From the IMG/VR virus record IMGVR_UViG_2547132417_000011: a stretch of 5,926 bases of DNA. The stretch is one strand, 5' to 3'. Below, in pieces: positions 3,829 through 5,047 of this stretch. Numbering within the stretch: position 1 is the first letter of the stretch; each line of letters starts with the position of its first letter. Both the position numbers and the translations under genes were made by a program. The notes beneath the pieces were generated by a model. It was not told the origin of the DNA. It saw only the letters and a program-made list of their open reading frames with translations, and ran no database searches. Origin of the DNA: a virus. Lineage: Duplodnaviria > Heunggongvirae > Uroviricota > Caudoviricetes.

Positions 3829-4989
3829 TTATTCAACCTCTTCTAAACTGCTCACTCTGGACCCTCGGCGGAAATTATCATCATTTTTAACATACTCGTA
3901 TGAATCCAGAATCAAACCAGATATGCGAAGTATATCTTCCGGATTAGTTATATGTATCCTTTTACCATCCGTATCAAGTCGAGCTCGTCTTATTTCATTC
4001 AACTGAACTTCACTAAGCGAAATAGGTAAAGTTATAAATGAAGATTTTTTATCATAAAATCTTAACAGCCATCTATTAGTTTTACCATTCAATAGTACAC
4101 CGAAATATGACTCAGTATCTTTATATTCTATATTATCTTCTGTTTGTATGATTTGTTTTACCCTTTCAAATAGCTCCAATTCTTTGGCTGTGGTTATTAT
4201 GTTGGGGTTTTCTTCATCAACAATGGCGTTATTAACTTGTGTATCCGTTGCATCATTTTCTTTAGTTTGCTCTACCGGTTGTGTAGATAGCCCGGAAACC
4301 ACCATTGCGCTAACAGCGCGCTCAACGGCCTGTTTAACTAATGGAGTCACGAACTCAAGAAATCTCTGATTAAGTTGCCTCTCAATATTTGAACGACTAG
4401 CAACATATCGAACAAACTCCAGATCAACTTCACGAAGACTAGAACTGATTGTTTTAGTAAATGAATTCAAATAAACACTTTCTTCAGCCAGTGTCCGTAA
4501 AGCCTCTGGTTTGAATTTATCATAACGAAAACGAAATAATTGTGTAATATCGGAGTGAGTTAGAGAATCCATTCTTAATTTTAAAAACGGCGTTGAATCC
4601 ATTATGTTTTTTTGTTTCAAATCCGTAAAAAAACGCCATTCAACACCATTTGTAATGGCTGATATAGTAACTTCCGGTGTTGAATTAAAATATCTTGATA
4701 GCTGTGGGCAGTGATTATCAATTTGTTCTGAAAACGATTTCGCCTCAATGAACATCACAGGAACATCATGACAAAATAAAGCGTAATCAACCCGTTCATT
4801 AGCCTTAACCCCGGGGAAGTCAGCACTATACTCAGCTTTGACTTTTCTTGGATCATACGGAGTAAAACCAAGAATATCTAGTAATGGCATAATGAGTGCT
4901 TGTTTTGTCGTTTCTTCAGTTGTACAAAACACCCCCATTTTTGCAACATGCTCTGTGTGTATTTTTAACTTATTTGCAAAATTTTCCAT
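3829..4989 (-). CDS. Moron-encoded protein with N-terminal type I restriction HsdR-N-like PD-(D/E)xK nuclease domain and uncharacterised C-terminal domain; candidate defence/exclusion nuclease
   Basis: Long ORF in an AT-rich segment. Two in-frame ATGs (5004 and 4989); GGAGGAG at 4996-5002 is 6 nt upstream of the ATG at 4989, so I call 4989 (386 aa); the longest ORF gives 391 aa. Residues 25-84 read ...EETTKQALIMPLLDILGF...GVKANERVDYALFCHDVPVMFIEAK, the pattern of HsdR N-terminal-like restriction endonuclease folds. D68 is at nt 4786-4788 and E82-A-K84 at 4738-4746. The C-terminal ~250 aa has no motif I can assign. Confidence 0.8.
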   Translation of the reverse strand: MENFANKLKIHTEHVAKMGVFCTTEETTKQALIMPLLDILGFTPYDPRKVKAEYSADFPGVKANERVDYALFCHDVPVMFIEAKSFSEQIDNHCPQLSRYFNSTPEVTISAITNGVEWRFFTDLKQKNIMDSTPFLKLRMDSLTHSDITQLFRFRYDKFKPEALRTLAEESVYLNSFTKTISSSLREVDLEFVRYVASRSNIERQLNQRFLEFVTPLVKQAVERAVSAMVVSGLSTQPVEQTKENDATDTQVNNAIVDEENPNIITTAKELELFERVKQIIQTEDNIEYKDTESYFGVLLNGKTNRWLLRFYDKKSSFITLPISLSEVQLNEIRRARLDTDGKRIHITNPEDILRISGLILDSYEYVKNDDNFRRGSRVSSLEEVE

Positions 4990-5015
4990 GCTTGTCTCCT
5001 CCATGGTTACAATCT

Positions 5016-5047
5016 GTATTTTGCAAATCCGAAATAATATATGTCAA
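5016..5047 (-). promoter_or_regulatory. Candidate sigma70 promoter for the inserted nuclease gene
   Basis: Perfect -35 TTGACA on the minus strand at 5047-5042. An 18-nt spacer leads to CAAAAT at 5023-5018 (4/6 match to TATAAT), about 30 nt upstream of the ATG at 4989. The -10 is weak, so this is tentative. Confidence 0.35.

Follow-up and report, generated by a model that had tools for sequence, protein, structure and literature searches.

The DNA stretch analysed here (5,926 nt, referred to throughout as the window; IMG/VR record IMGVR_UViG_2547132417_000011, Caudoviricetes) carries, between two genes of a phage baseplate module, a cargo cassette, or moron, of 1.35 kb with a single gene, coding for a nuclease of the HsdR-N-type PD-(D/E)xK kind. 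Comparison with related prophages revealed that the junction between the two baseplate genes, called W and J after the corresponding positions of phage P2, is a hotspot at which different cargo is found, while a tally of homologues located elsewhere revealed that, in 50 of 52 loci, the nuclease gene stands directly behind a lysogeny repressor, on the same strand. On balance, we consider that the gene probably, although by no means surely, specifies an exclusion or defence nuclease expressed in the lysogen.

Limits, composition and signals of the cassette

The borders of the cassette were defined by comparing the window with its two closest sequenced phages, Escherichia phage Rac-SA53 and pPE4. 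In BLASTN alignments homology is lost between positions 5128 and 3796, and alignment of the junctions at the base level places the breaks at the stop codon of the W-position gene and at the start codon (ATG) of the J gene. The cassette therefore corresponds to the whole intergenic stretch (3789-5138, minus strand), in place of which Rac-SA53 carries 1.85 kb of different cargo. Neither direct nor inverted repeats were found bordering it, and a transposon-like insertion was rejected for lack of such repeats.

The GC content of the cassette is 35.8%, with 26% at third codon positions (GC3), and ranges between 28 and 43% across the insert when measured in 200-nt windows; the corresponding values are 50.3% (GC3 61%) for the W-position gene and 49.6% (GC3 50%) for the J gene. 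An earlier note on this DNA, made from the sequence alone, had described an AT-rich insert within flanks of 52-60% GC: the contrast is real, but the flanks average 47-50%, with peaks of 58%.

A mechanical search delimits an intact open reading frame (ORF) of 391 aa at 3829-5004 of the minus strand. All the 31 aligned homologues begin with MENF or MDNF at the second ATG, position 4989, and the sequence GGAGGAG, read as a Shine-Dalgarno (SD) element at 4996-5002 on the same strand, ends 6 nt upstream of this codon. For both reasons the real start is almost certainly the ATG at 4989, and the coding sequence (3829-4989, minus strand) would specify a protein of 386 aa, reported in RefSeq as WP_000426903.1, 'type I restriction endonuclease'. 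This SD is a strong one, as the earlier note had claimed.

Upstream of the gene, the scan for promoters gave its best score, 10/12, to a site (5018-5047, minus strand) composed of TTGACA (5047-5042), an 18-nt spacer and CAAAAT (5023-5018). It is the same promoter-like TTGACA which had been pointed out earlier; taken alone it weighs little, since AT-rich DNA yields many such sites, and the 10 sites seen compare with 5.3 +/- 2.3 in shuffled sequences, an approximately twofold enrichment. At the other end of the gene, an intrinsic-terminator-like hairpin (3800-3827, minus strand) is formed by an A-run, a 12-bp stem, a GAAA loop and a T-run. A simple terminator scan did not pick it up; its predicted folding energy is -17.4 kcal/mol (z = -5.0) and none of 200 shuffled sequences folds equally well, which bears out the earlier claim of a terminator belonging to the cassette. 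The hairpin stops 12 nt ahead of the J start, and the SD element of J (GGAG) comes after it. A Rfam search of the window gave zero matches.

Insertion between genes which are adjacent in relatives, deviant composition and the presence of expression signals, of which the promoter is putative, all agree with a self-contained, AT-rich, single-gene moron, as the earlier note had described it.

The nuclease domain

Pfam scans of the 391-aa ORF returned two families, HSDR_N (PF04313; E 5.6e-14, 52.9 bits against a cutoff of 25.1) and HSDR_N_2 (PF13588; E 2.4e-9, 37.7 bits against a cutoff of 25), both matching within residues 30-133. The HsdR-N-like character of the protein, previously proposed from its motifs, is therefore supported by two profiles above their curated cutoffs, and the predicted PD-(D/E)xK domain occupies aa 1-130 (4600-4989, minus strand). 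With the start at 4989, the residue numbers given earlier for the active site are exactly right: the codons of D68, E82 and K84 are located at 4788-4786, 4746-4744 and 4740-4738, respectively. A QxxxY motif, of the RecB-family type described for the HsdR subunit of EcoR124I (PMC2475608), is formed by Q96-Y100.

Conservation of these residues was evaluated on an alignment of 26 sequences, with identities down to 26% (alignment A2). E25, K29, D68, Y69, K84, Y100, G115 and D123 are invariant; 25 of the 26 sequences have E82, and at least 90% have Q96. Such strict conservation of the active site indicates that nuclease activity is what is selected. The family profile also aligns, motif by motif, with a HsdR fragment from Vibrio of solved structure (3h1t), at a weak E value of 0.029; apart from this match, searches of PDB sequences with the protein, the family profile and a profile of the C-terminal domain produced hits at chance level (haemagglutinin, chemoreceptors, DnaK). 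The predicted fold is restriction-endonuclease-like, similar to that of solved HsdR nuclease domains. From its sequence, the protein is classified as a HsdR-N-type PD-(D/E)xK nuclease with an intact and conserved active site.

The W/J junction

Positions 280-5645 of the window are found, with 100% identity, in Escherichia coli strain 214-4, within a complete prophage located at the Rac attachment site, adjoining ttcA. This prophage contains intR, xisR, ralR, recT, recE, kilR, ydaT, a gene for a helix-turn-helix (HTH) repressor, lysis, terminase and portal genes, and a contractile-tail module. The gene set (intR, recET, kilR, ydaT) and the ttcA site identify the host element as a Rac-type prophage, provided with a myovirus-type tail, rather than as the P2-like phage previously supposed. 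No helicase, methyltransferase or specificity gene was detected in the window by Pfam scan, nor is any annotated in the whole 214-4 prophage, so that the lack of such partners, noted earlier for the immediate surroundings, holds for the entire element.

The junction was surveyed in 5,426 complete E. coli genomes. The W-position gene is present in 88 of them, 25 of which carry the nuclease cassette; among the cassette-free genomes listed, an antA/antB antirepressor is annotated at the end of the W gene in nearly all. In Rac-SA53 and pPE4, whose W and J genes are 96-97% identical, the gap is occupied by an AntA/AntB antirepressor gene together with two hypothetical genes in the former and one in the latter, all on the opposite strand. 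Strain ETEC1703 (L098:1560-3316) carries a 1,071-nt gene of the 'lysozyme inhibitor LprI family', oriented as the tail genes, and an antirepressor fragment; its cassette ends with a terminator hairpin followed by ATGGAGTAA..ATG (GGAG), a design nearly identical to that of the nuclease cassette. Nothing separates the W and J genes of Yersinia phage vB_YenM_29.18, a more distant relative, in which the two overlap. The W/J junction is a cargo hotspot, as relatives carry at this position either other cargo (antirepressor, LprI-like) or nothing. The absence of the insert from relatives, which the earlier note had proposed to look for, is thus observed, and its place is taken by other cargo or by overlapping genes.

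Compared with C7 or GmM062, two other strains, the window shows 7-10 differences over 1,331 nt of the cassette and 44-49 over 1,227 nt of the J gene. This low divergence implies either that the cassette spread recently across diverged backgrounds, or that the flanks recombined around it.

In PP818812.1 (Actinobacillus phage vB_Apl-pPE4), one of the sequences used in these comparisons, the tail-region DNA is 95-97% identical to that of E. coli Rac-type prophages, and identity reaches 99% for the J protein. Actinobacillus is a suspicious host for it, and what was deposited may be a prophage of E. coli, either induced or carried over while the phage was propagated.

Distribution and genomic context of the family

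The protein matches PHROG 4225 ('endonuclease') over its full length, with an E value of 9.8e-149. A HMMER scan of 1.84 billion cluster representatives detected 3,356 clusters (50% identity) at E<1e-3, 1,762 of which at E<1e-10. The gene is no orphan oddity, but one member of a very large family which PHROG has catalogued and RefSeq has named. Twenty-seven representatives were retrieved, mostly 345-416 aa in size, five being longer (up to 509 aa); they share the N-terminal motifs, and 20 of them, included in alignment A2, align with the window protein end to end. By TBLASTN, the family was traced to temperate phages infecting Klebsiella, Clostridium, Enterococcus, Lacticaseibacillus, Streptococcus, Porphyromonas, Corynebacterium and Fusobacterium.

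Genomic context was evaluated for 52 loci of IMG/VR, found by using a closer alignment (A1) and exclusive of those of the E. coli W/J type, by classifying the upstream neighbour on the same strand. A CI-like repressor (HTH_3 plus Peptidase_S24) is found in 18 loci and a DicA-like repressor in 3; in a further 29 loci the neighbour is a protein of 158-160 aa, the size of RacR, and the two of these that were scanned are RacR equivalogs above the curated cutoff. The homologue thus lies directly behind a lysogeny repressor, on the same strand, in 50 of the 52 loci. Repressor-adjacent copies include those of four different Citrobacter prophages (22-nt gap), Providencia (10-nt gap), Klebsiella phage KpF5, E. 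coli PCN061 and STEC384. In Rac-like genomes, such as that of locus L008, the nuclease gene lies between the repressor gene and kilR, a slot which we take to be that of sieB in the Rac prophage of E. coli K-12; more generally, the position behind the repressor is presumably the analogue of that of rexAB in lambda.

Other positions were also observed. In Stx2-type prophages a copy is located directly after the Q antiterminator gene, on the opposite strand, and the closest relatives of the window protein, with 85% identity, are encoded in a Salmonella nin region, with HigBA, IS605 and an ORF6N gene as neighbours. In a Xenorhabdus chromosome (L105:3290-5152) a CI-like repressor gene and the nuclease gene are the sole remnants of a decayed prophage, adjoining an IS110 element, which suggests that the pair was kept as a unit, either through selection at the host level or because the nuclease depends on the repressor for its regulation. 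In Gilliamella the gene is found alone in the chromosome, amid housekeeping genes. GC content is 11-15 points below that of the flanks in five of the six enterobacterial homologues checked; the STEC384 copy is about 2 points below its flanks and the Gilliamella copy about 4 points.

Interrupted or incomplete copies were encountered as well. In E. coli PCN061 (L095:7001-8823) the homologue has lost its 3' end, and with it the last part of the C-terminal domain, to an overlapping IS1 element; in NZ_OZ547461.1 IS1 splits the homologue, and several database entries are N- or C-terminal fragments of the family. Inactivation seems to be frequent, and the gene may carry a fitness cost.

The helical region and the C-terminal domain

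According to the secondary structure of an AlphaFold2 (AF2) model, the nuclease domain is followed by a central, mostly helical region (aa 131-235; 4285-4599, minus strand), which is well conserved within Enterobacterales, with a mean identity to the window protein of 78% in alignment A1. A variable linker, modelled with low confidence (aa 236-262), connects it to a C-terminal alpha/beta domain (aa 263-375; 3865-4203, minus strand). In the model, the fold of this last domain resembles YdhG, YjbR and the C-terminal domain (CTD) of T4 MotA, that is, DNA-binding double-wing or YjbR-type domains, and a putative role as a reader of DNA or of another target may be proposed on this basis. The domain is less conserved than the nuclease domain, mean identities among enterobacterial members being 61% and 82%, respectively.

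Pfam scans of the middle and C-terminal regions, performed on the window protein and on 22 distant members, matched no family, and a search with a profile of the C-terminal domain returned only truncated fragments of the same family and no other architecture. BFVD yielded one family member and, besides it, some matches with small proteins of phages, T4 Alc-like and MotA among them, which are too weak to be used.

Proposed function and alternative explanations

The gene is always single and moves between at least four classic moron positions. Because it is dispensable, patchy in its distribution, foreign in composition, confined to one gene, and located at moron positions and behind repressors, a function in conflict, namely the exclusion of other phages or of foreign DNA, would account for its features. 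The placements behind repressors, after Q and in the nin region would, in our judgement, lend strong contextual support to a role in defence or exclusion, which we rate as somewhat better than an even chance; they also lead us to infer that the gene is expressed in the lysogen.

The cassette would have been acquired horizontally, as prophage cargo provided with its own expression signals, and would direct the synthesis, in the lysogen, of a standalone DNA endonuclease. Most likely, such an enzyme would shield the lysogen, and hence the prophage, from other phages or foreign DNA. Cutting would be performed by the N-terminal cleavage domain (PD-(D/E)xK plus QxxxY), of the kind found in type I HsdR and in type IIG/IIL enzymes, tethered through the helical region and a flexible linker to the YdhG/YjbR/MotA-CTD-like domain, which would pick the target. 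Because there is no cognate methyltransferase, and because the operons in which the gene sits should be on in the lysogen without killing of the host, the C-terminal domain might tell non-self from self by some feature of the invading DNA, be it a modification, a structure or the ends. This reader-cutter mechanism, nearer to that of type IV or FokI-like enzymes than to protection by host methylation, is offered tentatively, as one possibility. A more far-reaching proposal, to which we assign a rather small probability, is that the family forms a widespread but unrecognised class of repressor-coupled, lysogen-expressed, single-protein restriction enzymes, endowed with a new, type IV-like reader domain (a YdhG/YjbR/MotA-CTD-like 'double-wing') for hypermodified or otherwise marked phage DNA, and that the W/J junction is an undescribed hotspot for defence cargo.

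A number of observations weigh against a defence nuclease made in the lysogen. Homologues with at least about 70% DNA identity are rare, being found in 33 of the 5,426 E. coli genomes, and the enrichment of promoter-like sites over shuffled sequences is low. The structural model is moderate, with a mean pLDDT (predicted local distance difference test) of 69, although about 90 in the C-terminal domain, and was derived from a shallow alignment. Of the checks against known defence systems proposed in the earlier note, that with PADLOC was negative, as no family of PADLOC-DB v2.0.0 matched, even at E <= 1. Searches of the full-text literature found no functional study of the family; the sole mention encountered concerns a phage-resistant Campylobacter jejuni strain with an extra 'HsdR N-terminal domain protein', a correlative observation, its 'role unclear' (PMC8713573).

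The main alternative to the reader-cutter, although a rather improbable one, is a trigger-activated, abortive nuclease, kept inactive in the lysogen, which would sense a phage cue through its C-terminal or helical domains and degrade DNA indiscriminately, with death or arrest of the infected cell. Phage proteins, replication intermediates and free DNA ends are conceivable cues. The protein has no known sensor or regulatory domain, NTPase or partner; its sequence does not separate such an enzyme from one acting by direct restriction, and the lone copy in Gilliamella fits both. A phage function other than defence, in recombination and repair, in degradation of host DNA or in some processing linked to the repressor operon, appears more doubtful still: the gene is dispensable and patchy, being absent from 63 of the 88 closely related prophages, it occupies at least four unrelated genome positions, its base composition is foreign, and the prophages already have functions of the RecE, RecT and RusA type.

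The selfish, homing-type endonuclease suggested as the alternative in the earlier note would cut the W/J junction of co-infecting relatives in which this is empty or filled with something else, and be copied into it by recombinational repair. The precise borders, falling exactly between two conserved genes, the presence/absence polymorphism of the insert, and a cassette which is 6-8 times less diverged across backgrounds than the adjacent J gene, as fits recent lateral spread, are all in line with it. Yet the places taken by most copies of the family (behind a repressor, after Q, within the nin region, or as a lone chromosomal gene) are not homing positions; copies outside the W/J junction occupy positions which should be expressed in the lysogen; the alternative state of the junction is usually other, unrelated cargo and not an empty site, which is what a general hotspot of recombination would show; the protein does not resemble any known family of homing endonucleases; and only 25 of the 88 related prophages have the cassette. 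Homing is therefore judged very unlikely.

Least probable of all, with only a slender chance, is an orphan restriction component working with an unlinked methyltransferase or with HsdM and HsdS of the host, or else a decoy alleviating type I restriction by the host. The RefSeq name would agree with it, and several prophages bearing homologues have DNA methyltransferase genes a few genes away. These are of different classes and not adjacent, and the 214-4 prophage has none, so that pairing with a methyltransferase of the prophage was rejected. HsdR binds the methylase, and works with it, through its helicase and C-terminal regions, which are lacking in the nuclease protein. A passive decoy is also at odds with the strict conservation of the catalytic residues.

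Were a defence role confirmed, a large family spanning several phyla, at present labelled 'type I restriction endonuclease' or 'endonuclease', would gain a function, and a compact nuclease with a new targeting domain would join the single-gene immune systems and, should it prove to read DNA modifications, might be of use as a reagent. Two sites would also become available for systematic searches of exclusion genes, namely the slot behind RacR- and CI-type repressors and the W/J junction of Rac-SA53-like phages. Given its size and its striking association with repressors, the family merits experimental study.

Other features of the window and of the source prophage

All long ORFs of the window are on the minus strand. 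Read in the direction of transcription, a conserved 45-aa ORF (5494-5631; PHROG 6632, E 2e-28), part of whose product is hydrophobic, is flanked by the V-like and the W-position baseplate genes; its counterpart in Rac-SA53 is annotated as rac58, without known function. The W-position gene (115 aa; 5139-5486) corresponds to PHROG 7986, a family of unknown function, had no match in the Pfam scan, and is placed at the position of P2 gpW by synteny. Downstream of the cassette are found the J-like gene (2562-3788; Pfam Baseplate_J, E 2.5e-7; PHROG 6), a gene matching PHROG 8212 (1952-2578), a tail fibre gene (570-1955) and a truncated tail-fibre assembly gene (235-567). The order is that of the V-W-J-I-H-G baseplate and fibre genes of P2, so that the names 'W-like' and 'J-like', already used in the earlier note, are fair by synteny; that of J is also supported by a profile, while that of W is justified by position alone. 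Strain ETEC1748 (L097) lacks J altogether, as well as the gene after it.

Positions 280-5648 are flanked by two copies of an insertion sequence of the IS66 family, in the same orientation, at 1-279 and 5649-5926. The left end includes the start of tnpA and a terminal repeat, the right one the C-terminus of tnpC (Pfam DDE_Tnp_IS66_C, E 6e-18) and a terminal repeat. This arrangement was found in no complete E. coli genome of the collection, where coverage of the window reaches at best 91%. The presence of IS66 copies on both sides indicates that the source prophage was disrupted, and the 5.4-kb piece with the nuclease gene looks like a composite-transposon-like unit. The left copy shortens the assembly gene at 235-567 to 110 aa, against 181 aa (546 nt) in relatives; the source prophage probably has a defective tail module, with the nuclease gene intact.

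Further accessory genes were noticed in the 214-4 prophage. Two adjacent genes just upstream of the small terminase gene (L001:42784-44500) code for a protein with a ParB_N domain and for a TET-associated glycosyltransferase (Pfam TAGT, E 2.5e-35). The pair hints at a possible glycosylation, or some other hypermodification, of the phage's own DNA; the annotation of the prophage includes neither a TET/JBP nor a methyltransferase gene. Such a modification could bear on how the nuclease tells self from non-self. The product of L001:38729-40165 (478 aa) is named 'anti-CBASS protein Acb1 family protein' in RefSeq and matches Phage_portal_3 in Pfam; either the name is an artefact of annotation, or portal and Acb1 are fused in this protein. 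At L099:7338-9694, hokD is found together with a divergent gene pair, 'beta family protein' and 'sce7726 family protein', resembling defence cargo of the P4 gop-beta-cll type, and this prophage may hold a second accessory or defence island.

Comparison with known systems

The window protein shares the HSDR_N nuclease domain with type I HsdR subunits, such as those of EcoR124I and of Vibrio (3h1t), but it lacks the superfamily 2 (SF2) translocase and the C-terminal helical domain, is not accompanied by hsdM and hsdS, and measures 386 aa against about 1,000 aa. In the Pfam scan ResIII, DEAD and Helicase_C gave no match in the protein, and its score against the NCBIfam HsdR equivalog is 18.9 bits, the cutoff being 729. 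Identity with a type I R subunit was rejected on these grounds (no translocase, no hsdMS, score far below the cutoff); the RefSeq name is misleading, and the annotation as a subunit of a type I restriction-modification system should be corrected. Enzymes of type IIG/IIL (BpuSI, DrdV/MmeI-like) have an N-terminal cleavage domain of the same kind, fused to a methyltransferase and a target-recognition domain, whereas the window protein has a small C-terminal domain and no methyltransferase.

By analogy, the layout may be compared with that of type IV and FokI-like enzymes (PvuRts1I/AbaSI, MspJI, Mrr), in which one polypeptide, tolerated by the host, would likewise combine a nuclease and a separate binding domain without a cognate methyltransferase. 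The C-terminal domain is not a reader of the SRA, EVE, YTH, PUA or winged-helix kind, the only likeness being that of its predicted fold to YdhG, YjbR and MotA-CTD. A phage-inducible chromosomal island (PICI)-derived single-gene system, FS_HsdR_like in DefenseFinder, was reportedly described by Fillol-Salom et al. in 2022, and its name suggests a gene related to HsdR; its identity with the nuclease family is to be taken as a lead, not as a finding.

In position, and in presumed co-expression with the repressor in the lysogen, most family members match rexAB of lambda, sieB of Rac and P22, bstA of BTP1 and stk of 933W, all of them, like the nuclease genes, dispensable cargo of foreign composition. 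The proteins and mechanisms of those systems are unrelated to the nuclease, and the window gene differs from them in being located at the W/J junction, with a promoter-like site of its own. The junction itself recalls the defence hotspots of P2 and P4 (Rousset et al. 2022, PMC9122126), where anti-phage cargo is swapped at a fixed intergenic site; the concept is the same, the site and the phage lineage are different. On present evidence, the window gene is of a known kind, a prophage-borne, single-protein PD-(D/E)xK nuclease, and what appears to be new is its undescribed C-terminal domain and its insertion hotspot.

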